From: a virus
Lineage: Duplodnaviria > Heunggongvirae > Uroviricota > Caudoviricetes
Direction: 5' to 3' (one strand)
Virus record (IMG/VR): IMGVR_UViG_2651869695_000011
DNA length: 40,258 nt
Shown: positions 6,025-35,233 of the stretch, one piece after another
Layout: the number at the start of each line of letters is the position of its first letter
How positions within the stretch are numbered: the stretch's first letter is position 1
Notes under the pieces: model-generated
What the model was told of the DNA's origin: nothing
The model's input: the letters and a program-made list of their open reading frames with translations, nothing else
The model's database searches: none
Translations under genes and position numbers: made by a program

Positions 6025-6090
6025 ATTACCTAAAAAACCACATATGGATAGATAACCCATAAATACGAACAGATATTACCTTTCAGGTAA
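6025..6090. promoter_or_regulatory. Bipartite upstream element of the tailspike operon: ATTACC-TAAAAAACCACATATG plus palindrome TTACCTTTCAGGTAA
   Basis: Perfect 6+3+6 palindrome at 6076-6090; AACCACATATG at 6036-6046; same arrangement recurs upstream of portal and early-gene operons. Confidence 0.45.
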
Positions 6091-6129
6091 TTCGCAAAAC
6101 GTGCTGGATAGCAAACAAATTATTTGCTA

Positions 6130-6145
6130 CTGTATAAATATACAG
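6130..6145 (+). promoter_or_regulatory. LexA (SOS) box
   Basis: CTGTATAAATATACAG matches CTGT-N8-ACAG with AT-rich core (consensus TACTGTATATATATACAGTA); 8 nt upstream of SD GGAG and ATG at 6167. Confidence 0.7.
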
Positions 6146-6166
6146 TTATTACATGGAGAAGATAAG

Positions 6167-6424
6167 ATGCAGCAGTATCACTATCCACTGGAAGACGGAT
6201 TTACCGAAAGGATTCACACGCCGGGAGGCGTCAGGTCACTGGTGGAGGGATCGCACTTGATGAAATTACTCCGGGATCTCGATAAGGATGGATTTAATGT
6301 CGATGGCCCACTTGCCGAACTGACTGCACTGATTAACTACGTCACCAGCTCACAGATGTCTATGCGGGATCTGCAAACACATCTCGACTATTGTGCCGAA
6401 CAATTACGAAAACAAACCAGATAA
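6167..6424 (+). CDS. Small antirepressor-like protein (stand-alone paralogue of the Bro-N protein C-terminal domain), LexA-controlled
   Basis: 85 aa; SD GGAG at 6154-6157; aligns with last ~70 aa of the 6740-7450 product (shared IH.P.GV..L.E.S.LM.LL..L..DG..V.G..AELT...Y......RD.QTH..Y). Upstream GTG 6101 extension rejected. Confidence 0.5.
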   Translation: MQQYHYPLEDGFTERIHTPGGVRSLVEGSHLMKLLRDLDKDGFNVDGPLAELTALINYVTSSQMSMRDLQTHLDYCAEQLRKQTR

Positions 6425-6560
6425 GATTTGAAATTACCAAGAGGAGTGCTTATATTTACCTTTGCGGTAAATTTACATCGCACTCCTCTTGTGCCATAGT
6501 AATCGGGCACTGGCAAAATCCAGTGCCGGGATTGGCGTCCCGAGTTACTAAGTGGCGCAT

Positions 6561-6583
6561 ACCACGCCAGACGTGGTTTTTTT
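6561..6583 (+). terminator. Rho-independent terminator
   Basis: ACCACG-CCAGA-CGTGGT hairpin followed by TTTTTTT. Confidence 0.55.
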
Positions 6584-6739
6584 ATGCGTTAAGCACAGCC
6601 ATATCCGAATTATGGTGGGCTGGGCAGGGGTCCGAAAGGACGCCGGTACCACTTAGGCCGGTACGCCAACCTTGTCCAGTTCACCACCAGTAATTGGCGT
6701 TGCGGTGGTGATTAAAATCACTAAGTGGAGATAACCACC

Positions 6740-7450
6740 ATGGCTAATGCTCAAACTGCCATCTTCAAATTTGAATCTGTTAACCCTATCCGTTCCATCA
6801 TTATCGATGGCCAACCATGGTTTGTAGCCCAAGACGTTTGTAGTGCGCTGCGTATCCAAAACGTCACCCAAGCACTTGAAAAACTGGATGATGATGAAAG
6901 GTCTATGTTCAACATAGGGCATGAACATCGTGCAATTTTTGACAGCCGAGTAAAAGAGATCAACATCATCTCCGAGTCAGGCCTCTACACACTGATCCTC
7001 CGCTGCCGCGATGCGGTGACACCAGGCACTATCCCCTACCGCTTTCGTAAATGGGTTACAGGTGAGGTTCTTCCTCAGATCCGCCGCACCGGAAGTTACA
7101 TTAAAAACTCGCTCCCGCAGGAAGAACGCATAAAGATGGTTGCCGACCAGGTAGCCAACGCCACAGCATCAGCAGTGATGCAGGCAATGAAGATAGAGAA
7201 CAAAACCTACAGTGCCCCACTGAAGCCCGGCTACCGCAGTCTGATTCATTCTCCGTCTGGTGTTCTCGGCCTGACGGAGAACTCACTGCTGATGAATTTG
7301 CTGAACCAGTTGCAGGAAGACGGGCACGATGTATCGGGCGCGGCGGCGGAGCTGACCACCATGTTTTGCTACATCGTTGGTGTGAGCAAATGCCTGCGTG
7401 ATATCCAGACTCACGCGGAGTACATCAACGACAAGGCTGGGTTCTTCTGA
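6740..7450 (+). CDS. Bro-N domain antirepressor-family protein
   Basis: Classical Bro-N signature (FKFESVNPIRSIIIDGQPWFVAQDVCSAL...LDDDE...ISESGLYTLIL...FRKWVTGEVLPQIRRTG); SD GGAG 9 nt upstream of ATG 6740; C-terminal domain paralogous to 6167-6424. Confidence 0.75.
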   Translation: MANAQTAIFKFESVNPIRSIIIDGQPWFVAQDVCSALRIQNVTQALEKLDDDERSMFNIGHEHRAIFDSRVKEINIISESGLYTLILRCRDAVTPGTIPYRFRKWVTGEVLPQIRRTGSYIKNSLPQEERIKMVADQVANATASAVMQAMKIENKTYSAPLKPGYRSLIHSPSGVLGLTENSLLMNLLNQLQEDGHDVSGAAAELTTMFCYIVGVSKCLRDIQTHAEYINDKAGFF

Positions 7451-7597
7451 CGGGCGGCGGCACAGGGATGTGCCTTTAAATAATTCTGTACAGATTGCAG
7501 ACTGTGGGTGAATAGCGTACTATTACCTCAAGGGTAAACGGATTGGTTTCATTTTTATTAATCCGTGTAATGAACTTATGAGATATGAGGTAATGTC

Positions 7598-7777
7598 ATG
7601 CGAAACGAAAAATTGCAGATGCGTAGAGCGCAAGCTGCCGCAAGACGTTCTTTCAATGGAAGCGTAGAGTACGTAAAAGTTACTATGACAAAAGATCACG
7701 CAAGTCGCGTATCCCGAGCTTTCTTTGATTCTCGTAACAATAAGGAAAATTATGAGTTCGTCTGCGTCGCAGAATGA
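7598..7777 (+). CDS. Small basic protein (59 aa), possible DNA-binding or antitoxin-like partner
   Basis: Not in ORF track (below size cutoff); good SD TGAGGTAA 6 nt upstream of ATG; Arg-rich N-terminus; 3' end overlaps start of next gene in a different frame. Confidence 0.3.
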   Translation: MRNEKLQMRRAQAAARRSFNGSVEYVKVTMTKDHASRVSRAFFDSRNNKENYEFVCVAE

Positions 7778-8297
7778 TAAAAATCAAATTGTCAGATATA
7801 AGGGTCGAGTATTGCATACGCAAAATTTCTCGGCCCTTTGTGCATCTGATCTTGAGCTGAAGAAAGTATCTGATGCCTTTACCCAGTATTGGAAAACGGG
7901 ATACCATCCATCTCTTGGTAAAGATGCTGCATTTGCTCGTCCGACAGAAATGCTTAAACTAAATGTCAGGCATACTCATGTCGATAACCAAGACTATATT
8001 CCAGAAGATAGTGATAAAAAACACACTGGTAAAAAATCATCTTGGGATGCATGGAAAAATATAGCGTCTGTGCAAGTAAAATGCATACCAACAAGTGATT
8101 GCTTTTTAGTTTATTCGGTAAATCACAATCGTGATGCGCTGGTTATGTTTTTTGTTGACGCAGATGCCCACAACATAACTGAGCAAGAAGAGTTTAAAGA
8201 GGAAGCAATCACTATCAGTTATCAATTCTTTGAGAAAACAAAAACAGAACCAATGCCTTTAGAAGAAGATCTTTTTTCTGATAAATGGAAGGAATAA
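7752..8297 (+). CDS. Hypothetical moron protein (181 aa), no family recognised
   Basis: SD AAGGA 7 nt upstream of ATG 7752; AT-rich codon usage unlike neighbouring virion genes; followed by a strong terminator. Confidence 0.5.
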   Translation: MSSSASQNDKNQIVRYKGRVLHTQNFSALCASDLELKKVSDAFTQYWKTGYHPSLGKDAAFARPTEMLKLNVRHTHVDNQDYIPEDSDKKHTGKKSSWDAWKNIASVQVKCIPTSDCFLVYSVNHNRDALVMFFVDADAHNITEQEEFKEEAITISYQFFEKTKTEPMPLEEDLFSDKWKE

Positions 8298-8319
8298 GCC
8301 CGCGTTGCGGGCTTTTTTG
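8296..8319 (+). terminator. Rho-independent terminator
   Basis: GCCCGC-GTT-GCGGGC then TTTTTTG immediately after the stop codon. Confidence 0.65.
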
Positions 8320-8356
8320 TGTCTGCGGATTCCCGCCCGGGCGGCGGTGGCATTCG

Positions 8357-8383
8357 TTAAAAACAAGGCCGCGAAAGCGGCCT
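8357..8383 (-). terminator. Rho-independent terminator of the virion operon (minus strand)
   Basis: On minus strand GGCCGC-TTTC-GCGGCC followed by TTGTTTTTAA. Confidence 0.55.
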
Positions 8384-8395
8384 GTGACATGTCAC
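8384..8395. repeat. 12-bp perfect palindrome GTGACATGTCAC (copy 1 of 3)
   Basis: Exact 12-mer between convergent terminators at the moron/virion boundary. Confidence 0.6.
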
Positions 8396-8396
8396 G

Positions 8397-8957
8397 CTAC
8401 ATTGATATATGATTCATAAAGTAGCTTAAAGATTTACTTCCCAGAAAAGAAATTTCTTTTCCTGGATATGTCGCAATAATTGAGCATGACTTATCCCCGT
8501 TAGAGGTAACAAATCCTGAATAACCTACTTGTTCTTTACCATTTTGTTGCTTGGCTAAAAAGTAGAGGTAGCTTATCTTTTTGCCCTCTGGGTAAAACTC
8601 TGCCAAACCAGTATCGGTGATTGAATATTTTATTCTCCCGCCTTGAGTAACGTTTTCCATCTCAAGTTTAGCTATGTCTTTTCTGTTGTATTCAGCATTG
8701 ATTTTCCTTTCGAAATCAATGTTGTTTTCAAATGAGTAGGAAGCAACAGTCTGAATAGATGGGAACACGTTTATCTGGATGCCTCCACAGTCGGCACAGG
8801 TATAAAGGTATGAATCAGATGGAATCCCCATAAAAGAAAACTGAGTTACCTTAAATTTATCGTTATCTCCAAAGTATTGAAGTTCGCATTTAACATTTTG
8901 CCCTGCAAAAGAAAATGCAGACATCAATATTGAAACAAAAAATATAATTGCCTTCAT
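8397..8957 (-). CDS. Secreted protein (cleavable signal peptide), function unknown; last gene of virion operon
   Basis: N-terminus MKAIIFFVSILMSAFSFA|GQ; start 2 nt after stop of upstream 850-aa virion gene; markedly AT-rich. Confidence 0.55.
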   Translation of the reverse strand: MKAIIFFVSILMSAFSFAGQNVKCELQYFGDNDKFKVTQFSFMGIPSDSYLYTCADCGGIQINVFPSIQTVASYSFENNIDFERKINAEYNRKDIAKLEMENVTQGGRIKYSITDTGLAEFYPEGKKISYLYFLAKQQNGKEQVGYSGFVTSNGDKSCSIIATYPGKEISFLGSKSLSYFMNHISM

Positions 8958-8959
8958 TA

Positions 8960-11512
8960 TTATTTACCTAGCATGAACTGCGATGGTGGGATCAGAAAGT
9001 CGTTACCCTGCTCACGCTCAACACGGCGCTGATAACGCTCAAGAGAGCCTGGGTCAAGGGCATCTTGTATCCGGTTCAATATTAAACCATTCATCGCCGT
9101 ACGAAGCCAGAACACGTTGAGGAATGGCGTATTGTCAAGTGCCGTGCGATACCAGTCACCCAAATCTGCATCCCCTCTCGTGGTCTGCTGGAGCAGCGTG
9201 ATAATGCTGTCAGCGTTCGATGCTGCTGGCCCCATTAGCGACGTAACCGGCCCGGCCCCCATGCGGTTGACCTCGCCAAACATGAAGTCACCCAAGATGC
9301 CAAGACCGCCCCCCTGAGATGCGGCTGCGAGAAACGTCTTGGCATCTGCCGGGCGTGGTGTTTGCCCTTTCAGCATGAGTTTTGACTGCATGGAGATATA
9401 ACCAAACATAGTCGCCCAGACAAAGAGGTTTGCAGCACCAAGGAAAGCCCCCTTCCCGTTACGTAGCAGCGCATTCGTCAGCGATCCGGTTTTCGACTCA
9501 CCAAGCCCAGCAGGAATATAACCACGCCCGAATACTTCGCGTCCTAGTACGTTCTGCATGAAGCTTGCAGTGAACGATTTGTACTGACCAGCGAATCGTA
9601 TTGCTTCCCCAGCCACCGTTCCTGGCACCGTGCCCATCTTCATAAACGCCTGCGTGCGATCGCCAGGCTCTGACATGGCGATATTCAGGCGGTCAAGGAT
9701 GTAGCCGCGCAACTGCCCTTCCAATTGATCGCGTGCGTCAGCGATAGCGCGCTGCGTTGGTTTGATCCCCTTACTCTCTACATAACCGGCAATCACTTCG
9801 TCAGGCACGCCGCGGATGCCGCTGGTCGTCATGAACTTACGACCTTCGCTATCGGCCATGTCCATGTTGCGAAAAATTTCCCACTCACGTTCGCCAATAC
9901 CGTGCAGATCCAGCACGCGTCGCAGGTCTTCCGGTAGCCGCGCATGAGACTGGTCAGCATTCTTTGCAAGCCAGTTGGTTATCATCATGGCGTTGCTGTT
10001 GCGACCGCTCTCGGTCCAGAAGTTCATGAGGTTGTACTTAAAGAAAAGCTGCTGCGCGCGACCAAGCTTTCCATTCAGCGTGTCATCACCAGATATGCGC
10101 CGGATGATTTCCTGCGTCATGGAGTCGGAATAAACTCCGATAGAGGAAAGGATCTCTTTCTGCTCCGCGCTGTTGTAACGCGTGAAGCGGCCTCTCATAG
10201 CACCAAGCAACGCCTGCATAAAATTCTGCCCTTGGTAGCGCATCTCGGTAGCGGCGATAGGCACGTCGTTAAACGATGAGATTACCGCACCACCAAGTTG
10301 GCTCATACGCAACCAGCCGCGTACAGCCGCCGACGCATTGGCCCAGCCTACGCTGCCAGGAATATTTAGCGAGCCGTCAACCTGCGGCATTACGGTACGG
10401 TTAATGCGACGCACCTTCGTCATGTAGTCAGCCAACGCTGCCGGTCTTCCGGATTTGCTGATATCTTCAGCAATGGCGTCCGTCAGGTACTTAAACATGT
10501 TCTGTGGGTTAGTGCCCAGTACGCGCATCATGCCCGTTGTGCGGGCAGCGCTGTTTAAGCCACCAAACAGCGCTTCTCGCAGGCTGCCGGTGCCGAATTG
10601 CTGGTTGTACTCGTGCCACGAGATACCATCTTTGAAGTGCAAAATTCGCTCTTGGCTGGCGCGTTTAGCTGCGTTCGCCGATCCCTTAAAGCCATTCATC
10701 CAATCGGGCTTTTCAGATGTAAGATGCACGCCGGAAGCCAGCCCGTTATAAATGTTACGCATGAACTGCTCGCGGTCAGCCACGCCGTCAAAAGTGCGCT
10801 CATCAAGGCGCGGGAGAATAGCATTTCGCCATGCTTCATAACCTGCGGCGCGGATCTTCATGATGTCGTGTGACTGGCGAACTATATAGCCCGGCTCTTT
10901 GCGTATCCATGCCCCGGCGCGGTTCTCATCAATGCGCGCAGTTTCCTGCCATTTCATGATGATTTGTGCAGCGCTTACGGATTGCTTTGTCATACCGTCA
11001 GTTGACTGCCCGCGCCCTATGCGCCACATTGCATCGGCAATTTCCCGGTCATTGCTGCCGCTGGCGATGAATTGCACCAGTCCGGCACGGTCAAAATCGT
11101 AGTTGATACCGGAATGATACTTGCCGCGCAGTTGCGCCACCTCCGAAGATACCGACCGGCGGGCGCCGGTACGCGCATCGTTGCGGCCAACCAGCATTGC
11201 TTCAAGCCCGATATCCGGGCGGTCTTTCCAGATAGTACGAAGCTCTCTAAGTCGTTGTGCGGCAATACGGGCGTTGATTGCCTTATTGCGAGCCTCAATC
11301 TGTTTTGCCAGCATATCGGCATTGCTCAGTTCTTCCGCTGCGCGCATCGCGGCCTCTTCCAGAGACAGCGCCTCATTGGTCGCCAGAATTCGCCTAGTGG
11401 TGTCGTTCATGTCACGCACCAGCGACTCCATCTCATCGGAAGAAAGCTCGCGACCAGCGGCAGCATTTACACTGCGCTCGCACTGCGTCAAAAATTCGTT
11501 TGCTGCCATCAC
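8960..11512 (-). CDS. Large internal virion (ejection/core) protein
   Basis: 850 aa, in block of large proteins between tail tube and tailspike as in T7 gp15/gp16 region; call by position and size. Confidence 0.5.
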   Translation of the reverse strand: MMAANEFLTQCERSVNAAAGRELSSDEMESLVRDMNDTTRRILATNEALSLEEAAMRAAEELSNADMLAKQIEARNKAINARIAAQRLRELRTIWKDRPDIGLEAMLVGRNDARTGARRSVSSEVAQLRGKYHSGINYDFDRAGLVQFIASGSNDREIADAMWRIGRGQSTDGMTKQSVSAAQIIMKWQETARIDENRAGAWIRKEPGYIVRQSHDIMKIRAAGYEAWRNAILPRLDERTFDGVADREQFMRNIYNGLASGVHLTSEKPDWMNGFKGSANAAKRASQERILHFKDGISWHEYNQQFGTGSLREALFGGLNSAARTTGMMRVLGTNPQNMFKYLTDAIAEDISKSGRPAALADYMTKVRRINRTVMPQVDGSLNIPGSVGWANASAAVRGWLRMSQLGGAVISSFNDVPIAATEMRYQGQNFMQALLGAMRGRFTRYNSAEQKEILSSIGVYSDSMTQEIIRRISGDDTLNGKLGRAQQLFFKYNLMNFWTESGRNSNAMMITNWLAKNADQSHARLPEDLRRVLDLHGIGEREWEIFRNMDMADSEGRKFMTTSGIRGVPDEVIAGYVESKGIKPTQRAIADARDQLEGQLRGYILDRLNIAMSEPGDRTQAFMKMGTVPGTVAGEAIRFAGQYKSFTASFMQNVLGREVFGRGYIPAGLGESKTGSLTNALLRNGKGAFLGAANLFVWATMFGYISMQSKLMLKGQTPRPADAKTFLAAASQGGGLGILGDFMFGEVNRMGAGPVTSLMGPAASNADSIITLLQQTTRGDADLGDWYRTALDNTPFLNVFWLRTAMNGLILNRIQDALDPGSLERYQRRVEREQGNDFLIPPSQFMLGK

Positions 11513-13206: not shown

Positions 13207-13207
13207 G

Positions 13208-19303: not shown

Positions 19304-19908
19304 CAGGACAACCTCGCAATGGTAAACTCGTCAACCGGTGGCTGTGGTTCCTGTGATTCATTCTGGCTATGCGAGCCAGCACTAAGAATCACGCGATTGT
19401 ACATATTGAGGGCAAACGTACCGAGGTCTGCATTCCCAGTCAGCGCCATGTTAATAGCTGCCGCAAGACGCCAGGCTAACGCCTCCATAAAAATGGCATC
19501 AAACATGTTCACATCTGTAACGCGAGAGACATACTTGAGCCATGCCTGAGGCTGGTCTGTGTAGATCAACTTTCCTGTTCCGTTGGTGTCTGCACCAACT
19601 TCGTACTGAACGCGCATTGGTGCTGCTGGATTGCGTACACCAGGAAGCATAATTTCAGTAATGCGCAGACAATCGGACGGGTACTGGTACGCATATTCCC
19701 AGTCAGGCGGTGGATTGCTCGTATCTGCAAGCGCCACGCGTTTGGTAGCAAAGTTCCAGTCAAAATCAGAAAGCACAGCATCACGGCAGGCCTCAAAGTG
19801 CAGCGAACATTCCCCCGCTTCCTTGCTGGCTTCCGTCAGGCTGTTAATGCTGCGGCTATTGCCAATATTGGACAGCGCGCGATTGCAGATCTCTACTACA
19901 GAGGCCAT
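19303..19908 (-). CDS. Tail tubular protein A (T7 gp11-like gatekeeper)
   Basis: 201 aa; N-terminal EICNRALSNIG...WNF pattern as in T7 gp11; canonical position before gp12-like gene. Confidence 0.65.
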   Translation of the reverse strand: MASVVEICNRALSNIGNSRSINSLTEASKEAGECSLHFEACRDAVLSDFDWNFATKRVALADTSNPPPDWEYAYQYPSDCLRITEIMLPGVRNPAAPMRVQYEVGADTNGTGKLIYTDQPQAWLKYVSRVTDVNMFDAIFMEALAWRLAAAINMALTGNADLGTFALNMYNRVILSAGSHSQNESQEPQPPVDEFTIARLS

Positions 19909-20231
19909 TACTCCCCCCCATTGCCGTACAGAGTTTCAGCCGCTGATTTTCCTACATCACCGGAAACAGGAGCGATAGCCATATCAGTGATCTGCAGATC
20001 GGCGCTGCGATTAACACCATCGTCAGTTTCTCTGGCAGACAGGCCTCGAATAACAGCCTTTGCAGTTATCATCACTTCTGTTCCGACGCCCTGAGGTTGC
20101 GCCTTCAGCTTATTCAATGTGTCGTTATTCAGCGTGATGCACAGCCCCCACGGGTATTCATCGCGAGTTCTGGTTTCTCCGCTCTCATCCTGGTAGCTGT
20201 CAGTGCCTGTTTTGAGGTTTACGAGTTCCAT
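19908..20231 (-). CDS. Hypothetical virion-module protein
   Basis: SD AGGAG 5 nt upstream of ATG at 20229-20231; overlaps gp11-like start. Confidence 0.4.
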   Translation of the reverse strand: MELVNLKTGTDSYQDESGETRTRDEYPWGLCITLNNDTLNKLKAQPQGVGTEVMITAKAVIRGLSARETDDGVNRSADLQITDMAIAPVSGDVGKSAAETLYGNGGE

Positions 20232-25033: not shown

Positions 25034-25113
25034 ATTATTACCAATTTAACCACATATGATTTATTTATCGTAGATAGTTGACATTTAACGCATGAATTAT
25101 TACCTTTAAGGTA
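25034..25113. promoter_or_regulatory. Bipartite upstream element of the head operon / tRNA promoter region: ATTACC-AATTTAACCACATATG, TTGACA, palindrome TTACCTTTAAGGTAA
   Basis: AACCACATATG at 25047-25057; TTGACA at 25077-25082; palindrome at 25099-25113. Confidence 0.45.
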
Positions 25114-25436
25114 AGCAAAGAGTTCATTCCGGTTACTAACCTGACTGGCTTGTCGTTAAATTGAACAGGTGGAGTGAGCTTTTATTTTGAGCAGTACGGC
25201 GTATGGCACATGCGCCGATAGCGGTCTGGATACGTTTAAGGGGCACCCTCCCTTGCTCGGGCAAACGAACCAGCTAGCCGGAATGTGCAAGTCGAGCGGT
25301 TTTATTCCGCGCACGGGGATTCACCATCCCGGCGATTCGGTGTGACGCCTCGGAAGAGACGAGGGTACAACGATGAGAGCATTTATGGAGCCGCGACAAA
25401 GTGTGGCGCCTTAACAGGCTAAGTGCTCTCAGCGTT

Positions 25437-25513
25437 GTGGCATTAGCTCAGTTGGACAGAGCAACCGCCTTCTAAGCGGTTGGTCGCAGGTTCGAATCCT
25501 GCATGCCGCGCCA
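25437..25513 (+). tRNA. tRNA-Arg (anticodon UCU)
   Basis: Cloverleaf by hand: acceptor GTGGCAT/ATGCCGC (one U-G pair), D-arm GCTC-AGTTGGACA-GAGC, anticodon arm ACCGC-CTTCTAA-GCGGT, T-arm GCAGG-TTCGAAT-CCTGC, discriminator G, encoded CCA; close to enterobacterial argU. Confidence 0.85.
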
Positions 25514-25556
25514 GAATCACGCCTAAGGACCGTGATGCCAGAAGTTCCAGGGGCTT

Positions 25557-25598
25557 GGCGGTGATGGTTTCCCTTGAAGGACTATCACCGCCCTTTTT
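25557..25598 (+). terminator. Rho-independent terminator after tRNA
   Basis: GGCGGTGAT...ATCACCGCC 9-bp stem followed by CTTTTT. Confidence 0.6.
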
Positions 25599-25676
25599 AC
25601 AGCAGGACGCCATTGCGATGACTTCATGCTGTAAACCCGTACAGCCACGGAAGGCATAACTCATTGCTTCCAGTTC

Positions 25677-25700
25677 GCCCGGTTCGCCGGGCATTTTTTT
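25677..25700 (+). terminator. Second hairpin/terminator immediately before the SD of the moron gene
   Basis: GCCCGG-TTCG-CCGGGC followed by ATTTTTTT, ending 1 nt before SD AAGGTGAG. Confidence 0.55.
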
Positions 25701-26072: not shown

Positions 26073-26084
26073 GTGACATGTCAC
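26073..26084. repeat. 12-bp perfect palindrome GTGACATGTCAC (copy 2 of 3)
   Basis: Exact 12-mer 5 nt after the moron gene stop, preceded by ATAACACC as in copy 3. Confidence 0.6.
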
Positions 26085-26088
26085 AAAC

Positions 26089-26116
26089 AGCCAGCCTATG
26101 AGCTGGCTTTGTTTTA
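26089..26116 (+). terminator. Rho-independent terminator of the moron gene
   Basis: AGCCAGC-CTATGA-GCTGGCT followed by TTGTTTT. Confidence 0.6.
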
Positions 26117-26158
26117 TCCTCACCAGAGGATATCAACGACATTATCCCCACCAGCGGA

Positions 26159-27634: not shown

Positions 27635-28224
27635 TGATTACCATCCTGACGTTCTTTGAGTCGCTTCCTGGCTGCCGCTATGCGATCAGCAATTGTCACA
27701 TTCACATTAACATCCAGGCGTTCTTTGAATGCGTTGACGTCGACGTGCTTACCAATCAGTTCGAGGTTCTTCACCTTGTCAGGCCATTTAATTTTTTTGA
27801 GGATTGTCTCTATCGAATCCTCGTTCATGTTCATGATGGTCGATGACAGATCAAAGCCACTAAGCGTAGTGCGCCAGATTTTCGGCCACTCACGGATTGG
27901 TTTAAGGCTCCCATCGTCGTTGAGGATATCGATCACGTCCATCTGGTCGATCTCCACTAGGCGCATGAGAACGTAATCAGCACTGACGCGCATTCGTTTG
28001 TTGCGCTCCTCCATCAACTCGGCAATCCGTTTTTGAATGCGTTCATCGCGCATCATGACACAGGCTTTAACTGCCGCTGTATTTGGGGAGAATCCTGCGT
28101 TAATCGCTGCCTGAGTCTGGTTTTCAGGCGTTTTGATGTATGACTGGCAATAAGCCTCCTGCATTGCTGTTAGTGGCTTAAATTGCGTTGATTTGCGTTT
28201 ATAGGTTTTAGGTTCAGCAGGCAT
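27631..28224 (-). CDS. Terminase small subunit
   Basis: Terminase-small-like segment LTAMQEAYCQSYIKTPENQTQAAINAGFSPNTA; start uncertain: ATG pair 28222-28227 after SD GGTGG preferred; ORF-track TTG at 28305 (overlapping upstream stop) possible. Confidence 0.65.
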   Translation of the reverse strand: MPAEPKTYKRKSTQFKPLTAMQEAYCQSYIKTPENQTQAAINAGFSPNTAAVKACVMMRDERIQKRIAELMEERNKRMRVSADYVLMRLVEIDQMDVIDILNDDGSLKPIREWPKIWRTTLSGFDLSSTIMNMNEDSIETILKKIKWPDKVKNLELIGKHVDVNAFKERLDVNVNVTIADRIAAARKRLKERQDGNQ

Positions 28225-28301
28225 CATAACCACCGTGGTAATAGTTACCGTTGTGGTAATAGTACCATGCAAAATAAAGCCGCCATAGTTGGCGGCAGTA
28301 T

Positions 28302-28514
28302 TCAAAGTCCATCAAATTCATCGTAAAAACTCTCGTCAAGATACCCTTCCCATTTACCGCGAATGAAAATTACATCCTCGCCGCAAGGGTGCTGACTGTC
28401 GATAACTATATCCCTCCTGGCGCAACCATACTTATGCATGAGAAATTTAACCTCTTTCGGAAAATTTGCTGAGTTATCTCTCATATCTTCAAGGTCGTAG
28501 CGTATTTTTGGCAT
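28302..28514 (-). CDS. Hypothetical small protein (70 aa)
   Basis: ATG 28512-28514 with SD GAAGGTG; the GTGACATGTCAC palindrome lies immediately upstream of this SD. Confidence 0.4.
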   Translation of the reverse strand: MPKIRYDLEDMRDNSANFPKEVKFLMHKYGCARRDIVIDSQHPCGEDVIFIRGKWEGYLDESFYDEFDGL

Positions 28515-28523
28515 AACACCTTC

Positions 28524-28535
28524 GTGACATGTCAC
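28524..28535. repeat. 12-bp perfect palindrome GTGACATGTCAC (copy 3 of 3)
   Basis: Exact 12-mer in short gap between two minus-strand genes; shares upstream ATAACACC and downstream GCCAGCCT with copy 2. Confidence 0.6.
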
Positions 28536-29404: not shown

Positions 29405-29739
29405 TTCGCCTCCTGCGGCGGTTCTGGTAGCAGCATCCAGTACAAGGCGTTCCCTAACCACGATAAAGTGCCGTCGCTCAACTCCACGTATTCCTCTTGT
29501 ACCTGTCCTGCCATATACTCACCGTGCTTTGAATAAATTAAAATCCAATCATCTTGAGCGGGCATTCGCTCACTACAGCTTATCCAACCACCCGGACTTA
29601 CCGGAGAGTTGCCAGTCTTACGCATGGCAATCTCCACGATTTCAACCATATCTCCTGGCAGAATTTTACAAAGCTGGCCAAAGCGCCTCTGCTGCCTGGC
29701 ATACTCGAGGATGTGCTTCAGTTTGGTTCGATTAATCAT
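29401..29739 (-). CDS. DUF551-like early protein
   Basis: C-terminal WMLLPEPP-type ending and CSERMP motif recalled from DUF551 lambdoid proteins (unverified). Confidence 0.45.
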   Translation of the reverse strand: MINRTKLKHILEYARQQRRFGQLCKILPGDMVEIVEIAMRKTGNSPVSPGGWISCSERMPAQDDWILIYSKHGEYMAGQVQEEYVELSDGTLSWLGNALYWMLLPEPPQEAK

Positions 29740-30122
29740 GATTTATCTCCCTTAAGCATGGCTGCACGGCAGGCGTTCCAGCCTCTCACCTCTGCAATAG
29801 CTGCAACAGCATCAACTGTGTACATGCTAAGAGGGTTAGGCATTGGTTTTTCTTCCGGTACTACTGGAACGGGTGGAGCGGCGTAGACCTCAATAATTCC
29901 ATTATCAACAGGCCATTCTCCATCCTTGAGGTAGTCACTTGTGCCGTCAACTTGCTGTTCTGCAATGTGGAATGCACCTATTGGTTTTGCTTCCAGTGAT
30001 GCCAGCGCAATCCGTGCCAGCTCTTCCGCTTCTTCTGCTGGCAGTACAACGTTGCTACCAGGTCCGTATGTTTCGCGCCACTCCTTGATTGTCAGCAGTC
30101 GCTCTTTGGTAATAGTGATCAT
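29736..30122 (-). CDS. Hypothetical early protein
   Basis: 128 aa, ATGA overlap with upstream gene; no family recognised. Confidence 0.4.
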   Translation of the reverse strand: MITITKERLLTIKEWRETYGPGSNVVLPAEEAEELARIALASLEAKPIGAFHIAEQQVDGTSDYLKDGEWPVDNGIIEVYAAPPVPVVPEEKPMPNPLSMYTVDAVAAIAEVRGWNACRAAMLKGDKS

Positions 30123-30634
30123 GCCGCGTTTCCTTCTTTCTTATTAACAATTACACCGTCATATATTTCATTAAGGTGCCCTCTCAACTCCATGCGCCTT
30201 AATGCAGATAACATGTAATCGCATTCAACCTGCTTATTCCCAATAAAAGGTTTATCTTCAGGGTTACCCCAACAGCAATTCCCCTTGGGCCATCCATGTA
30301 CTTTCCGTACTCTTCCGTTAACAACGTGAAGTAATCCCCAGCCAGGAGGTAAATCCTCAATTGAAATAATTCCCGGCTCACTAATAAAGAATCGCCAGTC
30401 GCCCATGCCAAGTGAGGGATTTTTACGGAAACGCTTTTTTCTATCTGCCAACAAGTCAGCACGAGAACACTTCGCCTCTATCAGGCATGATGCTGAATTT
30501 CTGAATCCCATAGCATCTGGCTGTTCTCCGGTACTGGTTACAGCAACAAAGCGGTCATGAAAGCAAACCTTGAACCCGTTGCGCTTAAGGAACTTGTACG
30601 CAATCTGACAGAGTTCGTGGTGTGTTAACGCCAT
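30119..30634 (-). CDS. Putative PD-(D/E)xK-fold nuclease
   Basis: D...E.K arrangement (PDAMGF...CLIEAKCSRAD) in N-terminal half; strong SD AAGGAG 6 nt upstream of ATG 30632-30634. Confidence 0.4.
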   Translation of the reverse strand: MALTHHELCQIAYKFLKRNGFKVCFHDRFVAVTSTGEQPDAMGFRNSASCLIEAKCSRADLLADRKKRFRKNPSLGMGDWRFFISEPGIISIEDLPPGWGLLHVVNGRVRKVHGWPKGNCCWGNPEDKPFIGNKQVECDYMLSALRRMELRGHLNEIYDGVIVNKKEGNAA

Positions 30635-30635
30635 A

Positions 30636-31121
30636 TCACTCTCCTTTGATGCGAATGCCTGTTGCAATGCTGTTTATGATGCTGTCAGTGCATGGGGTAG
30701 AAAGCTGGGCATCTCCAGCAATTTTCATGACCTCAACATCTGCATATCGAATACCGAGGTGTATCAGACCGGCTATGCCTGACTTAAGCCGAGCATTTTC
30801 CATAAATAGAACTTTTGCCCGCTGTTTTTCTGCTTCAAGCTCAACGCGCAGCTTCCCTACCGTTAGCGCAATATCCTCGTTCTCCTGGTCACGGCGTTTG
30901 ATGTATTGCTGGTTTCTTTCCCGTTCATCCAGTAGTGCCAGCACGGTTTCTGGTCCGGCCAGAAATTTGAAGGCGTTGAGCGCATCAATATCCACACCGT
31001 AATCTTTAAGTTCCTGTTCACTTAACAAATCATCATCAGCTGGCAACATTAACAGGCGTTCCATTGCTGGAATTGCACGTTTCGCCGCCTCACGCAGTGC
31101 CTGATAGTCAATCTTGCTCAC
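30636..31121 (-). CDS. Coiled-coil early protein (Ead/Ea22-like by composition)
   Basis: 161 aa, helical/coiled-coil, in early accessory block; family recalled not verified. Confidence 0.35.
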   Translation of the reverse strand: MSKIDYQALREAAKRAIPAMERLLMLPADDDLLSEQELKDYGVDIDALNAFKFLAGPETVLALLDERERNQQYIKRRDQENEDIALTVGKLRVELEAEKQRAKVLFMENARLKSGIAGLIHLGIRYADVEVMKIAGDAQLSTPCTDSIINSIATGIRIKGE

Positions 31122-31666
31122 TGGTTGCCTCCTTTGCGAAGCTTCGCCGCAAAATCAGCCGCAACCTCTTTGACCATATTGGATAGCGGAGTGCCACCTC
31201 CGAATTTTTCTGAGAACATCTCCACACCCTGTGCCCTCACTTCAGCCAGGAAAGCATCGGTGGCTGGGGTGTCTGATTGCAGAGACTTTGCGCGATAGTC
31301 ATTCCACCCTCTTGCATACATGGGATTAACTTGCACTCCATCTTTTACGCAATATGCCTGCCCTCCACGGTTGATAACCTTGATTTCGTCCATAGCGCCA
31401 GACTTCAGCCCCGCATTCTCCGCCGCAAGCGCCGAAAACTTCTCGTGTGCCAACTTAACAGCCGCATCAGCCTGCTTAATTGACTCAATCGCTTTCTGGT
31501 GCTCTTCGGCCAGCTCATTAGCACGCACCAACTGAACTTCCAGTTGCGTTGCCAAATCGCTGATCAGCTTTGCCACACTGCGCATATCAACGGCACCACA
31601 TTCTGCTTTCAGTTCCGAAGCCATCTCATGCCCGGCAGCAACTAACCCTTTGATATTACGTTCCAT
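31118..31666 (-). CDS. Coiled-coil early protein (Ead/Ea22-like by composition)
   Basis: 182 aa, coiled-coil N-half; ATGA overlap with downstream gene. Confidence 0.35.
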   Translation of the reverse strand: MERNIKGLVAAGHEMASELKAECGAVDMRSVAKLISDLATQLEVQLVRANELAEEHQKAIESIKQADAAVKLAHEKFSALAAENAGLKSGAMDEIKVINRGGQAYCVKDGVQVNPMYARGWNDYRAKSLQSDTPATDAFLAEVRAQGVEMFSEKFGGGTPLSNMVKEVAADFAAKLRKGGNQ

Positions 31667-31727
31667 CTTTACCCTCGCTTATCCACATAACTTATTGATT
31701 ACATTGATAACTAAAAAGATCGTCGAT

Positions 31728-32072
31728 TCAGAACTCTTCGATGTTCCAGCCACCACCTGCTTTCTTTGGTTTAACCGTTACCCCGATGATTCGGAACGGA
31801 TACTGATCTGCGGCGACTTTGGTTTTCACCCTGGCGTCGTCGGTCCAGAAACCTTTCACTTCGTGCAGTTCCATCTCGCCGGTGGCGAGCATCACAGCAA
31901 AATCGGGCGTATAGAACGTGTTGTCAGCTAACCGCAGCTTGATACCCTCAAATCGATACCAGACGATTTCTCCTGCACGTTTACGCAGCTCAAGGTGCTG
32001 GCAATACGCAGATTCTGTTTTGTTCATCTGGCCTGTTTTGAGTCGACCAAGAGCCTGTATCTGTTTTCTCAT
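31728..32072 (-). CDS. Small PD-(D/E)xK-like protein (DUF1064-like)
   Basis: Motif YTPDFAV...ELHEVKG (D...E.K); SD GAGGTAA upstream of ATG 32070-32072 that is part of palindrome TTACCTCTGAGGTAA. Confidence 0.4.
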   Translation of the reverse strand: MRKQIQALGRLKTGQMNKTESAYCQHLELRKRAGEIVWYRFEGIKLRLADNTFYTPDFAVMLATGEMELHEVKGFWTDDARVKTKVAADQYPFRIIGVTVKPKKAGGGWNIEEF

Positions 32073-32075
32073 GAT

Positions 32076-32152
32076 TTACCTCTGAGGTAATTAAAAACCA
32101 CATAAGACACGAAATCAATAGATTTTAGAATATTTTATTACCCATAAGGTAA
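32076..32152. promoter_or_regulatory. Intergenic regulatory region with two TTACC-N5-GGTAA palindromes and AACCACATAAG
   Basis: TTACCTCTGAGGTAA 32076-32090, AACCACATAAG 32096-32106, TTACCCATAAGGTAA 32138-32152; only sizeable gap in the early minus-strand operon. Confidence 0.45.
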
Positions 32153-32189
32153 TTATCGAGACGTAAAAAAATGCGCTATCGCGCTGGTA

Positions 32190-32990
32190 TTACTTGATAA
32201 ATCCTGACGCCTTTCCCCGCCTGTATTCCTCCATCAGCCACTGCGCCGGTGTTATTCCCCCCAGGGTGGCGGCGTTAGGCATGCACCCGAAACTTCGCCC
32301 TGGTGGATGGTAAACGTCTCTCCCTGTGTCCGGAGGTGTACTCATAGGCTCTGGCTTTGCCTGTATGCTGATCACCGGATCGGGTATCTGCTGTCCGGAA
32401 GCCACCTTTTTCGCCCAATCATCGAGCAGCCTGCGCGCGTGTTTCTCAACCTCAATCTCGCTAAGCTGGCGCTGATACATTGCACGGCGGGTATCACATA
32501 CGACCCAGTACATAACCGGATGCCGCCACGGGAATCTTTCGGGACCACCAGGATATAAACTTTTTTCCTTGCTGTACCGGTGAAACTCCGCCATCACATC
32601 GTCAATGGTGACGCCAAGAACCATCTTGCTGTCTTTACACCACTTGATAAATTGCCCTGGCGACGGCCAGAACGGAGATTCACTGGAGCGGGCGTGGCGC
32701 ATACCAGCAGAAACCTGTTCACGGGTTCGGATCCCCCCTTCGGCAAACGCAGCAATCCACTGCTGTTTTGCAGCGACTTCCTGCTCTGGCGTCTTCAGGT
32801 TGGTTACCACTGCCGCCGGAAACAGTTGTTTCAACTGTTTGAAAAGGGCATCAACAAGCCTCTCTGCTGACATGTTCACTACGTTGTCATTGTTGGTGTA
32901 CTGATGCTCATAACCTGACATGCGAGAAAGGGCTTCTCCGTCACGGTTTTGTATTGCGGTAAAAACGTTGTTCACAAGAAATCCTCCCAT
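32190..32990 (-). CDS. Replication protein, lambda P-like (helicase loader)
   Basis: Segment QWIAAFAEGGIRTREQVSAGMRHARSSESPFWPSPGQFIKWCK closely parallels lambda P (QWVLAFRENGITTMEQVNAGMRVARRQNRPFLPSPGQFVAWCR). Confidence 0.7.
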   Translation of the reverse strand: MGGFLVNNVFTAIQNRDGEALSRMSGYEHQYTNNDNVVNMSAERLVDALFKQLKQLFPAAVVTNLKTPEQEVAAKQQWIAAFAEGGIRTREQVSAGMRHARSSESPFWPSPGQFIKWCKDSKMVLGVTIDDVMAEFHRYSKEKSLYPGGPERFPWRHPVMYWVVCDTRRAMYQRQLSEIEVEKHARRLLDDWAKKVASGQQIPDPVISIQAKPEPMSTPPDTGRDVYHPPGRSFGCMPNAATLGGITPAQWLMEEYRRGKASGFIK

Positions 32991-33763
32991 GCTTCAGGGC
33001 TGTTCCAGTGCGGAACGTTGTTATCAGGTAATGTTGATTGCTTCTGTCTGCTAATCTGCAGCCGCCTTGCCAGCTTCTGCTCCCACTGTGCCTGATGGTA
33101 TGCCTTACCCTCAGCCATCCAGTAAATTCTGAATTCTGCAAGTTCCTGTGCCGTTGGCAGACTGTCCAGGTAGATCCCCTGCAATGAGCTTTTCCGAAGA
33201 AAGTCATCTGATGGCTGCCATTGTTCATGCATGACAAATTTGCCTAATTGCCCTGGCCCACCAGGAGGAACAAAGTTATTCATCACGGCGTTGTTTGCGC
33301 CGGGGTCATGAGGCACAGAATCCCCGCTTTTTGTCCTGCTCTCCCTCTCTTGGTTAAATGACTGGTTATATGACTGGTTCTGGATCCCGTTTTTGGGATC
33401 ATTCAACATCCCGTTTTTGGGTATATTCCCGTTTTCGGTAACATTACCGTTTTCGGGTTCATTACCCCCTTCCCGGTTGCCTTTAATGTTCCCGTTTTTG
33501 GTTATATTAAGAGAGAAAACCCGCACTCTTTTCGTCGCTCCCTTTCTCTCACCGGTATCTGAAATAAGCCCCATTTTCATGAGCGATATAAGCCCGGCCT
33601 GCACGGTTTTTTTATTCAGACAAGTGTCTTTAACGAGGCGTTCTATGCTGGGATAGCAGAGGTTATATTCATCGGCTCTGTCAGCCATCGAGAGCAGTAT
33701 GAGCTTTAATGACGAGCTACCTGGATCTGTCTCCCAGGCCCAATCTGTTGCATGTCTGCTCAT
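32972..33763 (-). CDS. Replication initiator, lambda O-like (N-terminal winged-helix, ori iterons in linker, C-terminal DnaT-like region)
   Basis: N-terminal DNA-binding region; Asn/Gly-rich repetitive linker encoded by iterons; C-terminal region recalled as DnaT-like; upstream of P-like gene; SD GGAG. Confidence 0.6.
   Translation of the reverse strand: MSRHATDWAWETDPGSSSLKLILLSMADRADEYNLCYPSIERLVKDTCLNKKTVQAGLISLMKMGLISDTGERKGATKRVRVFSLNITKNGNIKGNREGGNEPENGNVTENGNIPKNGMLNDPKNGIQNQSYNQSFNQERESRTKSGDSVPHDPGANNAVMNNFVPPGGPGQLGKFVMHEQWQPSDDFLRKSSLQGIYLDSLPTAQELAEFRIYWMAEGKAYHQAQWEQKLARRLQISRQKQSTLPDNNVPHWNSPEAWEDFL
33384..33503. repeat. Origin-like iteron array (CCCGTTTT[T/C]GG direct repeats) inside the O-like gene
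   Basis: Copies at 33386, 33410, 33428, 33446 (variant), 33491 spaced 18-24 bp (one gap with a degenerate copy), followed by AT-rich GGTTATATTAAGAGAGAAAA. Confidence 0.6.
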
Positions 33764-33778
33764 GATTAATCTCCGCTA

Positions 33779-33979
33779 TCAGCTTGAATGTTGTGGGGAG
33801 GAATTAATCATGATCTGCTTAATCTCTGCCCTGATGCGACGGTTTGATTCCATGGTGCACTCAACACAGTGTCCGTTGTAAACCCAGCGTTCACTGTCAT
33901 GTCCGTGCTTACATGTTTTTCCGGTGTAGTAGCGTTTAAGTCCGCGCTTTGCGGCATCAATACGTGTAATGATTTCCAT
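33779..33979 (-). CDS. Small zinc-finger protein (regulator candidate)
   Basis: CKHGH...(x)...CVEC metal-binding arrangement; start at ATG 33977-33979 tentative (weak SD); upstream in-frame ATG at 34015 possible. Confidence 0.35.
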   Translation of the reverse strand: MEIITRIDAAKRGLKRYYTGKTCKHGHDSERWVYNGHCVECTMESNRRIRAEIKQIMINSSPQHSS

Positions 33980-34082
33980 GGTAAGCCCTGTTATTAGTAT
34001 TGGGATTACGGTCATTTTGTGCTGACACAAAAAAAAGATCAACCAGATTTGGTTTTTTATTACCTTTGAGGTACGAATAGAT

Positions 34083-34108
34083 ATGAAAAGACCGCCGGGT
34101 GGCGGTCT
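34083..34108 (-). terminator. Terminator after cro-like gene (tR1-like position)
   Basis: On minus strand GACCGCC-ACCC-GGCGGTC followed by TTTTCAT. Confidence 0.5.
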
Positions 34109-34129
34109 ACAGAGGGTTGTAGCTGGATA

Positions 34130-34360
34130 TCATGAGTAGAAGAAGTATGCCAGTTCTGCTTTTGAGCGCAGCCATTGTCTTGTTTTACAGGCTTTAAAAA
34201 GCCCATCCATCAATACCTTACCTGGCATTTTGCGCTTACCTGTTAAGTGAGTCTGGATATAGTGACTCGTCGTTCCGGCTTCCTGTGCGAAGGCTTCACG
34301 CTCATCCGGAGTAAGTGCAAGCCAGTGCTTTTTGAAATCGAAATGTCCGTTATCGCTCAT
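34130..34360 (-). CDS. Cro-like HTH regulator
   Basis: 76 aa with HTH-like segment (EAFAQEAGTTSHYIQTHLTGKR); divergent from repressor across the operator cluster; candidate promoter TTGTTA-N17-TATTAT upstream. Confidence 0.5.
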   Translation of the reverse strand: MSDNGHFDFKKHWLALTPDEREAFAQEAGTTSHYIQTHLTGKRKMPGKVLMDGLFKACKTRQWLRSKAELAYFFYS

Positions 34361-34396
34361 AGCTATTGCCTGATATTTATTTCAGATAATAAATAT

Positions 34397-34459
34397 TCAC
34401 CCATAAGGTAACAAAAATCAAGGATAGTTACCTATGGGGTGCATTTACCTGTTGGGTAA
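34397..34459. promoter_or_regulatory. O_R-like tripartite operator between cro-like and repressor genes
   Basis: TCACCCATAAGGTAA (34397-34411), TTACCTATGGGGTGC (34428-34442), TTACCTGTTGGGTAA (34445-34459); one overlaps the candidate cro promoter. Confidence 0.6.
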
Positions 34460-34514
34460 TATTGCTTTAAATTGAATCATCTACTGATTCATATATGAGG
34501 CGATTTTCCAGAAA

Positions 34515-35099
34515 ATGAAAAGTATCCAGGACGTCCGCAGGCAAAATCTCAACGACTTGATCGACCGTGAATTCAATGGTGTTCAGACGCGGATGGCAGA
34601 AAAACTTGGAACTCAGGCAAATCTGGTAAACCGCTGGGCTCTTGGCAAGAAGGTTATCGGCGACCAGGTTGCGCGAAAAATTGAAGCTGCCGCCAATAAG
34701 CCCCGTAACTGGCTTGATATCGATCGCTCGCTTTCTCAGGAAGGTTTTCAGCCTGTCGGCCCAAGCGACATTGGTCAGCTGGCGGCCCACAACCTGGAAC
34801 GCTGGATGAGCGAAAGCCGCGACCTTTCAACACAGGGAAAACTTCACCGCGCATCCGGAGTCGCCCAGGTGACAATCAGCCGCCTGTTAAACAATGAGGT
34901 CAGCGTTTCCATTTCCACCCTGGAGAATGTTGCATCTGCATTCGGGCGTCACGGATATGAACTACTGATTCACCCGCACGACCCTGCAACTATCAACTAT
35001 GACCGCTCGCGCTACGCATTGTTACCTGAAACCGAGAAAGCAAAGATCGAAAGTTACATTGAATTTGTCATCAACCAGAACGAAAAAAACAAACAATAA
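34515..35099 (+). CDS. Prophage repressor, two HTH-like segments, no recognisable S24 peptidase/autocleavage domain
   Basis: HTH-like segments at about residues 20-65 and 110-155; no Ala-Gly/Ser-Lys LexA-like C-domain; no SD within 12 nt of ATG (possibly leaderless). Confidence 0.6.
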   Translation: MKSIQDVRRQNLNDLIDREFNGVQTRMAEKLGTQANLVNRWALGKKVIGDQVARKIEAAANKPRNWLDIDRSLSQEGFQPVGPSDIGQLAAHNLERWMSESRDLSTQGKLHRASGVAQVTISRLLNNEVSVSISTLENVASAFGRHGYELLIHPHDPATINYDRSRYALLPETEKAKIESYIEFVINQNEKNKQ

Positions 35100-35120
35100 A
35101 ATCATATTTTTCAGTAAGTA

Positions 35121-35146
35121 AGCCGCCAAATGGCGGCTTTTTTATT
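35121..35146 (+). terminator. Rho-independent terminator after repressor gene
   Basis: AGCCGCC-AAAT-GGCGGCT followed by TTTTTTATT. Confidence 0.65.
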
Positions 35147-35156
35147 GCCAGATAGA

Positions 35157-35233
35157 TTACCTGTTGGGTGATTTTTTTAACTCATATCTATTGACATCAA
35201 ACCAGATACGAATAATTATTACCTCAACGGTAG
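35157..35233 (+). promoter_or_regulatory. O_L/P_L-like operator-promoter driving the recombination/xis/methylase operon
   Basis: TTACCTGTTGGGTGA (35157-35171); -35 TTGACA (35191-35196), 17-bp spacer, -10 AATTAT (35214-35219); TTACCTCAACGGTAG (35219-35233) over the start site. Confidence 0.55.

Follow-up and report, generated by a model that had tools for sequence, protein, structure and literature searches.

Which transcription units of a prophage does its repressor hold directly, and through what site? The question is raised by a 15-bp palindrome, TTACC-N5-GGTAA, that recurs between positions 6076 and 35233 of the IMG/VR record IMGVR_UViG_2651869695_000011. This record (here "the window", meaning the whole stretch of 40,258 bp that was analysed) is a Uetakevirus prophage of Escherichia coli, of the epsilon15/phiV10 type. 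An initial annotation took the palindrome to be the operator of the immunity repressor, of a Cro-like protein, or of both. It suggested further that the phage might silence its tailspike, head and "moron" promoters directly through that operator, a scheme broader than that of lambda.

The answer given here is that the palindrome is very probably the operator of Rep, the Uetakevirus repressor. It would serve a repression network of about 14 sites, spread over the genome and induced in the way known for phage SPC32H. The enrichment of the palindrome, its positions, their conservation and spacing, and the homology of Rep, of the antirepressor Ant and of the LexA box that go with it are direct observations. 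Which promoters the network reaches is, of course, a more subtle matter.

Frequency and form of the palindrome

Eight perfect copies lie in the window (at 6076, 6456, 7523, 25100, 28245, 32076, 32138 and 34445), where dinucleotide shuffles of the whole window give 0.00. Allowing one mismatch raises the count to 15, against 0.67 in the same shuffles; the added copies are at 3879, 8581, 28227, 34060, 34397, 35157 and 35219. Thus, the palindrome family proposed in the initial annotation is real. Nor is it a by-product of AT-rich intergenic DNA. When the non-coding DNA alone (3073 bp, AT-rich at 43% GC) served as background for first-order Markov simulations, the 8 perfect copies stood against 0.006 expected, and 13 copies with at most one mismatch against 0.15. 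This rules out chance frequency.

All 14 of the sites considered credible lie in non-coding DNA, though such DNA makes up 7.6% of the window (P about 2e-16). They are spread over nine separate intergenic regions, from 6076 to 35233, and none falls within a gene. The copies at 3879 and 8581, each with one mismatch and each inside an open reading frame (ORF), are compatible with chance and were dropped as operators.

Across the 14 sites, A3-C4-C5 and G11-G12-T13 never vary, and the sites are two-fold symmetric. There is also a preference, short of invariance, for the outer TT and AA and for A/T at the flank and the centre. This gives an operator consensus of a-TTACC-(t/y)ww(a/r)... -GGTAA-t, with ACC-N5-GGT as its invariant core. 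The site coordinates of the initial annotation hold, except that the head-operon site is at 25100-25114, not 25099-25113; its list had overlooked a tandem pair, 28227-28241 and 28245-28259, before the probable true start of terS.

Conservation of sites and spacings

The motif, its positions and its spacings are common to 13 phages and prophages that carry Rep, while Rep itself falls to about 42% identity. These genomes span Escherichia, Salmonella, Enterobacter, Klebsiella, Citrobacter, Erwinia, Superficieibacter and Scandinavium. Among palindromes of the 5-N-5 form, none is more over-represented than TTACC-N5-GGTAA in six genomes (the window, phiV10, epsilon15, Tyrion, SPC32H and Klebsiella phage BUCT711), each of which has 8-11 perfect copies. 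It is found also in TL-2011b and in six prophages of other Enterobacterales genera that were located via Rep.

In alignments of the phages, the half-sites stay invariant and change is confined to the spacer of five bases and to the flanks; at the 25100 site, seven genomes were aligned. Invariant half-sites with variable spacers are the signature of a protein contact site.

The distances between sites are shared as well. A spacing of 62 bp recurs in two separate modules, with 22 exact cases and three more at 61 or 63 bp in the 13 genomes. The cluster between rep and the cro-like gene, called O_R here, has spacings of 17 and 30/31 bp in 13 of 13 genomes. An 18-bp spacing before terS is kept in 8 genomes, one of 337-341 bp from O_R1 to a site beyond the cro terminator in 11, and one of 380-383 bp around ant in the phiV10-type phages.

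The motif follows the repressor closely. All full-length Rep homologues found in the phage and bacterial genome collections belong to the same phage type and come with the same motif. Sodalis phage phiSG1, whose portal protein is 58% identical and which gave no Rep match in the phage-collection search, has 0 perfect copies and one single-mismatch copy. Five distant homologues matching only the N-terminal domain of Rep (from Paraburkholderia, Hydrogenovibrio and Thiomicrospira) come without the motif. Phages with a swapped repressor, which would separate Rep from other binders, were sought, and none was among the Rep homologues found. The motif travels with Rep, and equally with the Cro-like protein. 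Because both co-occur with it everywhere, covariation does not separate the two, and the sequence fits either or both as the binder.

The immunity region and its repressor

What, then, speaks for Rep? The rep gene (34515..35099, + strand) encodes a protein of 194 amino acids with an N-terminal helix-turn-helix (HTH) DNA-binding domain, a middle dimerisation domain and a C-terminal tetramerisation domain. It is identical to the repressor genes of phiV10 and ZX5, and its product aligns from end to end with the SPC32H Rep of the crystal structure (PDB 5D50_A, E 4e-42). In an alignment of five phages, the N-terminal domain is the best-conserved part. Pfam reports HTH families only, and no S24 peptidase, in this protein. 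The SPC32H protein is a tetramer that forms its DNA-binding pairs in trans and reads palindromic sites, and Ant disassembles the tetramer (PMC9638917).

Three O_R-like sites had been placed at 34397-34459, between rep and the divergent cro-like gene (34130..34360, - strand, 76 amino acids). All three are present. The O_R1-like operator, TCACCCATAAGGTAA (34397..34411), lies in the spacer of the rightward promoter P_R (TTGTTA-17-TATTAT, 34414-34386, - strand), which faces the cro-like gene. The middle one, the O_R2-like TTACCTATGGGGTGC (34428..34442), is degenerate, with 2 mismatches, and keeps the ACC/GGT core; its counterpart is a perfect site in epsilon15, SPC32H and BUCT711. The O_R3-like operator, TTACCTGTTGGGTAA (34445..34459), is the closest of the three to rep. 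The O_R1 deviation (a TCACC/GGTGA variant) is kept at the O_R1 position in nearly all relatives, and this conservation suggests a site tuned to be weak. For the rep promoter itself, no convincing sigma-70 match was seen within 34460-34514.

On the other side of rep is the early-left promoter, TTGACA-17-AATTAT (35191..35219, + strand), which feeds p39, p38, recE, recT and alpA. This promoter, noted earlier between the sites at 35157 and 35219, was confirmed by a promoter scan (10/12 consensus matches). One operator (35157..35171, at about -62) lies upstream of it. The other (35219..35233), 62 bp away, has as its first T the last T of the -10 hexamer and spans the transcription start. Both are mismatched in the window (GGTGA and GGTAG); their phiV10 equivalents are perfect.

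One phage of this type has already been annotated in just this respect. The RefSeq record of epsilon15 (NC_004775.2) holds seven "protein_bind, repressor, lysogeny" features with the sequence ATTACC-N5-GGTAAT. They lie before terS (12-27), before the first head-operon gene (2931-2947), between ant (gp19) and the tail fibre gene (19895-19911), in three places beside the repressor gene, and at one place after the replication genes. Since this record annotates equivalent sites, the idea of dispersed operators is already known for epsilon15-type phages. The earlier suggestion that operator control is broader here than in lambda is therefore borne out for such phages, and is not new.

The window and epsilon15 share the identical ATTACC-N5-GGTAAT sequence, equivalent positions, and equal spacings of 62 bp, 17/30 bp and 18 bp. 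They differ in that the epsilon15 record marks only 7 of that phage's 15 sites with at most one mismatch; in that the phiV10-type lineage of the window adds operators at the isrK/C4/Bro and cargo promoters and lacks the site at the lysis operon; and in their Rep proteins, with an overall identity of only about 42%. The epsilon15 genome paper by Kropinski et al. of 2007 is said to give the consensus ATTACCWDWWNGGTAAT; a full-text literature search for that consensus gave nothing.

The tripartite cluster between rep and cro, the early-left pair, the homology of Rep to that of SPC32H and the epsilon15 annotation together support the reading of the motif as the immunity operator. Here, however, the Cro-like protein must be weighed. 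Proteins of the lambda Cro type share operators with their repressor, which favours a role for the 76-residue protein as well. It belongs to a "transcriptional repressor" family of PHROG (phrog_35, E 5.6e-13), is 58-83% identical across five phages of the genus, and has an invariant helix, AGTTSHYIQ.HLTG, in its HTH. Alone or with Rep, it could be the main binder of the dispersed sites, shutting early, antirepressor and cargo promoters during lytic growth. That this is so seems unlikely, though worth keeping in mind. A lytic repressor bound at terS would be counter-productive, and the pairing of sites suits a tetramer that has two heads for DNA. Both the epsilon15 annotators and the SPC32H work (PMC9638917) ascribe operator binding to Rep.

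A far less probable alternative gives the palindromes to some other regulator, such as p55/gp49, or makes them sites for packaging or recombination boundaries. It draws on the conservation of p55 (phrog_536), on one mosaic junction that falls exactly at the edge of the 7523 operator, and on the position of the terS pair, where pac sites sometimes occur. The densest operator clusters, however, flank rep; sigma-70-like promoters have operators lying over their -10 hexamer and start site; a pac function would call for neither as many as 14 sites nor so wide a spread; and a separate conserved box before the late operons, described below, is the better candidate for an activator site.

Several points weigh against the assignment of the whole network to Rep. 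It draws on annotation, on synteny and on the joint occurrence of motif and protein. In conservation, the Cro-like protein equals or exceeds the N-terminal domain of Rep, and it co-occurs with the motif everywhere. The promoters at 6076, 25100, 34060 and 28245 are weak consensus matches. A 62-bp loop would be tight, with about 211 Å of DNA between heads about 100 Å apart, and the O_R spacings of 17/31 bp are out of helical phase. Even so, Rep as the binder is the strongly favoured explanation, and the following sections proceed from it.

The induction switch

Ant, a small antirepressor of 85 amino acids (6167..6424, + strand), matches the SPC32H Ant chain (PDB 5D50_E, E 1.4e-46). A perfect LexA box, CTGTATAAATATACAG (6130..6145), overlaps its promoter, P_ant. 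The box is invariant in 6 genomes, and its distance from the operator at 6076 is constant in 5 of the 6 aligned; BUCT711 is off by a 2-nt deletion. The set of LexA, Ant and Rep, as recognised by homology, is the known induction circuit of the SPC32H type. SPC32H is among the prophages induced through a LexA-controlled antirepressor (review PMC7380047).

The circuit would work as follows. Rep would be a non-cleavable tetramer whose two pairs of N-terminal HTH domains each take one palindrome, with the tripartite cluster set between rep and the cro-like gene. DNA damage would remove LexA, Ant would be made, and Rep tetramers would be pulled off all operators together. Compared with the SPC32H Rep-Ant-LexA switch (PDB 5D50/5D4Z), the window has homologues of Rep and Ant, a LexA box on the ant promoter and the same set of palindromes. 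Unlike SPC32H, it has an extra antirepressor module resembling that of P1, with a C4-like RNA and a Bro-N gene.

Core and upstream operators

Physical binding and the promoter assigned to each single site are, of course, things that we infer. The geometry of the sites nevertheless falls into two classes.

In the core class, the operator starts at the last T of the -10 hexamer and spans the start site. This arrangement is strong at 6456, 32076 and 35219; it is plausible, with a junction to a TACTAT hexamer, at 7523 and 28245, and plausible also on the + strand at 25100. A single rule joining -10 hexamer and operator at all sites was tried and fails, the junction being absent outside these six positions. 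The operators of the upstream class end 16-19 nt before the -35 element, at 35157, 32138, 34060 and, for P_ant, 6076. At P_ant, the LexA box holds the core position instead of an operator.

At two promoters, the early-left promoter and that of the operon running from the DUF1064 gene to p55, operators 62 bp apart sandwich the -35 and -10 elements. The second of these promoters (TTGATT-17-TTTAAT, - strand, 9/12 matches) has its core operator at 32076..32090; its upstream operator, at 32138..32152, lies beyond the replication-gene terminator.

The remaining sites are distributed as follows. Beyond the cro terminator (34108-34089), the single operator at 34060..34074 stands 17 nt upstream of a promoter-like TTGATC-17-CAAAAT for p42 and the replication genes. 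The tandem pair with its 18-bp spacing (28227..28259) lies between the p55 terminator and the probable terS start (an ATG near 28222), and is preceded by a -10-like TACTAT hexamer. The operator at 25100..25114 stands alone where the head operon (- strand) and tRNA-Arg/p03 (+ strand) diverge; directly beside it on the + strand are a conserved TTGAC and an AATTAT hexamer. The operator at 7523..7537 is at the core of a cargo ("moron") promoter, TTGCAG-17-TACTAT (+ strand). A promoter TTGAAA-17-TATATT (+ strand, 10/12 matches) and its core operator at 6456-6470 together occupy 6428..6470. Last, the single operator at 6076..6090, in the divergent region between ant and the tailspike gene, is 380 bp from the 6456 site and ends 16 nt before TGGATA, the -35-like element of P_ant.

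The 6456 site had been described as lying in a hairpin loop. Twelve-bp arms do exist (6438-6449/6480-6491); they are not conserved in phiV10 or Tyrion. A terminator-loop role for the site was rejected, as it abuts the -10 hexamer of a strong promoter and the arms are unconserved.

The initial annotation also observed that some GGTAA halves double as Shine-Dalgarno sequences and might couple regulation to the start of translation. The first part holds at 32076, where the GAGG ribosome-binding site, six bases ahead of the ATG at 32072, comes from the right half of the operator. phiV10, epsilon15, Tyrion and BUCT711 all retain the overlap, even with a different downstream gene. The operator at 28227 probably overlaps the terS Shine-Dalgarno sequence likewise. 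The GAGGTAA ribosome sites at 35240 and 7585 are lone half-sites, not operators. The second part does not stand, as a repressor that binds DNA provides no evidence of translational coupling. The overlap reflects a compact layout of promoter, operator and ribosome-binding site with a very short leader.

The terS pair touches on a matter of gene annotation. In the phiV10 annotation the terS ORF has 675 nt, and its start is probably about 81 nt too early (28224-28305), because the genes of epsilon15, Tyrion and TL-2011b have 594-597 nt, and because the extra stretch contains the operator pair and a terminator-like hairpin.

A promoter possibly clamped between two operators

Core operators would block transcription starts at the early-left, DUF1064-p55, isrK/C4/Bro, cargo and terS promoters. 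Upstream operators would sit about 60 bp upstream and, at two promoters, would be paired with a core operator at the fixed 62 bp, which is six helical turns. Here, a single Rep tetramer, bound to both members of the pair, could act as a clamp and close the promoter off in a small loop. Larger loops of 340-380 bp could join single sites (6076 with 6456 around ant, and 34060 with O_R around cro).

The C-terminal domain of Rep has a looping tetramerisation fold of the p53/Rco type, with pairs of dimerisation domains about 100 Å apart (PMC9986798). Looping is nevertheless the more speculative part of the argument. The joint proposal, of a 62-bp promoter clamp and 340-380 bp loops, with all non-late units under Rep and a separate late box, is put forward only tentatively and is rather doubtful in its entirety. 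The clamp architecture may be undescribed, because the mechanism of repression by Rep "has not been extensively characterized" (PMC9986798). With the rigid 62-bp pair, the way in which a tetrameric looping repressor turns off a promoter becomes open to a simple test.

Late operons

Does Rep silence the late genes directly? Those who annotated this DNA first thought that it might, at the tailspike, head and moron promoters. At the moron promoter, the cargo operator at 7523 plausibly takes the core position. For tailspike and head, the geometry makes direct silencing doubtful.

A conserved box, CATATrTGGTT, followed after seven bases by a -10-like hexamer and with no -35 element, precedes the head (25037-25058), tailspike (6025-6046) and lysis (about 3137-3159) operons, all on the - strand. 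It is invariant in 6-7 genomes. A copy with one mismatch (32096-32106, - strand) lies in the spacer of the DUF1064-p55 promoter. The box makes a candidate target for a late activator, p55 for instance, and the late promoters look activator-dependent. The Rep operators are 49 bp (head) and 37 bp (tailspike) upstream of this box; relative to the likely starts, they would be near -80 and -70. In the window, the box before the lysis operon comes without an operator; relatives have one only with a divergent O-antigen conversion gene. A Rep half-site within the late promoters was considered and rejected, as GGTAAT is in the head and tailspike boxes and absent from the lysis box.

These operators would fit the divergent promoters (P_ant, and the + strand promoter toward tRNA-Arg/p03) better than the late promoters. 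In this alternative, the operators beside late genes act on the divergent units (ant, tRNA-Arg/p03 and, in relatives, the O-antigen conversion genes), and the late promoters are silent in the lysogen for want of a phage activator that Rep controls. The case for it and the case against it are about evenly balanced. Its strength comes from the late box that precedes all three operons without a -35 element, and from the variable distance between operator and box (37, 49 and 40 bp). The lysis box is without an operator in the window because the divergent oac gene is absent. The 6076 operator stands to the -35-like element of P_ant as the upstream operators stand to P_L and the DUF1064 promoter, and the 25100 operator abuts its AATTAT hexamer and conserved TTGAC on the + strand. 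However, the epsilon15 annotators place IHF sites beside the late-adjacent operators, and a bend there could bring Rep to the late promoter; further, the + strand promoter at 25100 and the P_ant -35 element are consensus guesses only.

One experiment from the literature bears on this choice. In ZX5, whose repressor is identical, over-expression of that protein lowers the transcripts of endolysin and holin by more than 99.9% (PMC9782041). This is consistent with direct and with indirect late control alike.

Modules behind the operators

The promoter at 6428 drives three elements on the + strand: an isrK-like RNA (6507-6583, Rfam, 67 bits; an Hfq-binding small RNA), a C4-like antisense RNA (6608-6691, Rfam, 66 bits) and a Bro-N gene (6725-7450, by Pfam search). 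Promoter and operator, and the set of elements behind them, are kept in phiV10, Tyrion and TL-2011b. By resemblance to P1 immI and to Gifsy-1 isrK-anrP, this set would be a second antirepressor module, beside the Ant of the SPC32H type.

Behind the 7523 operator follow, on the + strand, an ORF of 59 amino acids (7598-7777) and a gene for a toxin-like protein of the YafO family (7752-8297), a cassette common, among phage records, only to the window and TL-2011b. The pair probably forms a toxin-antitoxin cargo cassette. Given its place behind a Rep operator, the cassette may not be expressed in the lysogen. In phiv142-3, the AGGAGG and ATG of a different gene directly follow the 7523-type operator. 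Homology to phiv142-3 and the Phi05 phages ends at the 3' edge of the operator (7537-7542), and the cargo differs from phage to phage. The promoter must therefore overlap the operator or precede it, and the cargo can be exchanged; the promoter-operator would be a fixed socket for swappable cassettes.

What is new in detail here is thus the core and upstream operator classes, the 62-bp clamp, the isrK/C4/Bro operator and the portable promoter-operator module for cargo. The gain is mainly one of annotation, as public records of phiV10-type phages list no operators, and the current picture of the epsilon15/SPC32H switch is unchanged. Prophages of the phiV10 type are, however, common in pathogenic E. 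coli, and serve as reporter phages. The roughly 14 Rep sites predict which units are silent in the lysogen, among them the second antirepressor module, the toxin-antitoxin cassette and the terminase genes; these Rep-gated units would turn on together once Ant is made.

Comparison with other repressors

As in lambda CI/Cro, a repressor and a cro gene diverge around three tandem palindromic operators (34397, 34428 and 34445), a second operator set lies at the early-left promoter, and repressor oligomers probably bridge operators. Unlike the lambda repressor, Rep lacks a RecA-cleavable peptidase and is inactivated by an antirepressor. In the window, moreover, at least five further transcription units have operators, the most distant 29 kb off, and the operator pair flanks a promoter at 62 bp, whereas lambda has adjacent tandem operators.

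Phage P1 has dispersed C1 operators and, in immI (c4-icd-ant), a C4-type antirepressor operon read from a repressor-controlled promoter; both features recur here. The C1 operators are asymmetric 17-mers bound by a monomer, whereas the sites of the window are symmetric, its repressor is an HTH tetramer, and the two proteins are unrelated. The "stoperators" of mycobacteriophage L5 and its kind differ as well, being asymmetric, inside transcription units and aligned with the direction of transcription; the sites considered here are palindromic and at operon starts. Closer in architecture are the Rco/p53-type "TetDloop" repressors, such as Rco of pLS20 (PMC9986798), whose tetramerisation fold Rep shares. 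Rco loops operators 75 bp apart (PMC9986798); the window pairs are 62 bp apart, around a promoter. Rco reads arrays of direct repeats, whereas Rep would read single palindromes, and its looping is proposed by analogy.

Other features of the window

Over shared parts, the window is 95-98% identical to phiV10, TL-2011b, phiv142-3, ZX5 and others. Host-like genes fill its left 1161 bp; they encode a glycine-zipper lipoprotein and a DUF5384 protein, and resemble the yfgH/yfgI genes beside guaA. They end at an att core of the guaA type, ATTGAGTGGGAATGATT (1162-1178). Because of these genes and the att core at the left, the window is an integrated prophage. Its right end is the integrase, cut at the start codon.

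The tRNA-Arg(tct) gene (25437-25513, + strand) overlaps an ORF on the opposite strand (25443-25694), p04 of the phiV10 annotation; this ORF may be spurious because of the overlap.

A second palindrome, the 12-bp GTGACATGTCAC, has 3 perfect copies (8384-8395, 26073-26084 and 28524-28535) and one with a single mismatch, with 1.0 expected at one mismatch or fewer. It is not seen in Sodalis phiSG1, and has comparable places in the 6 relatives checked. Its copies mark the 3' ends of operons: after the last late gene before the terminator, after terL, and at the p55 stop codon before terS.

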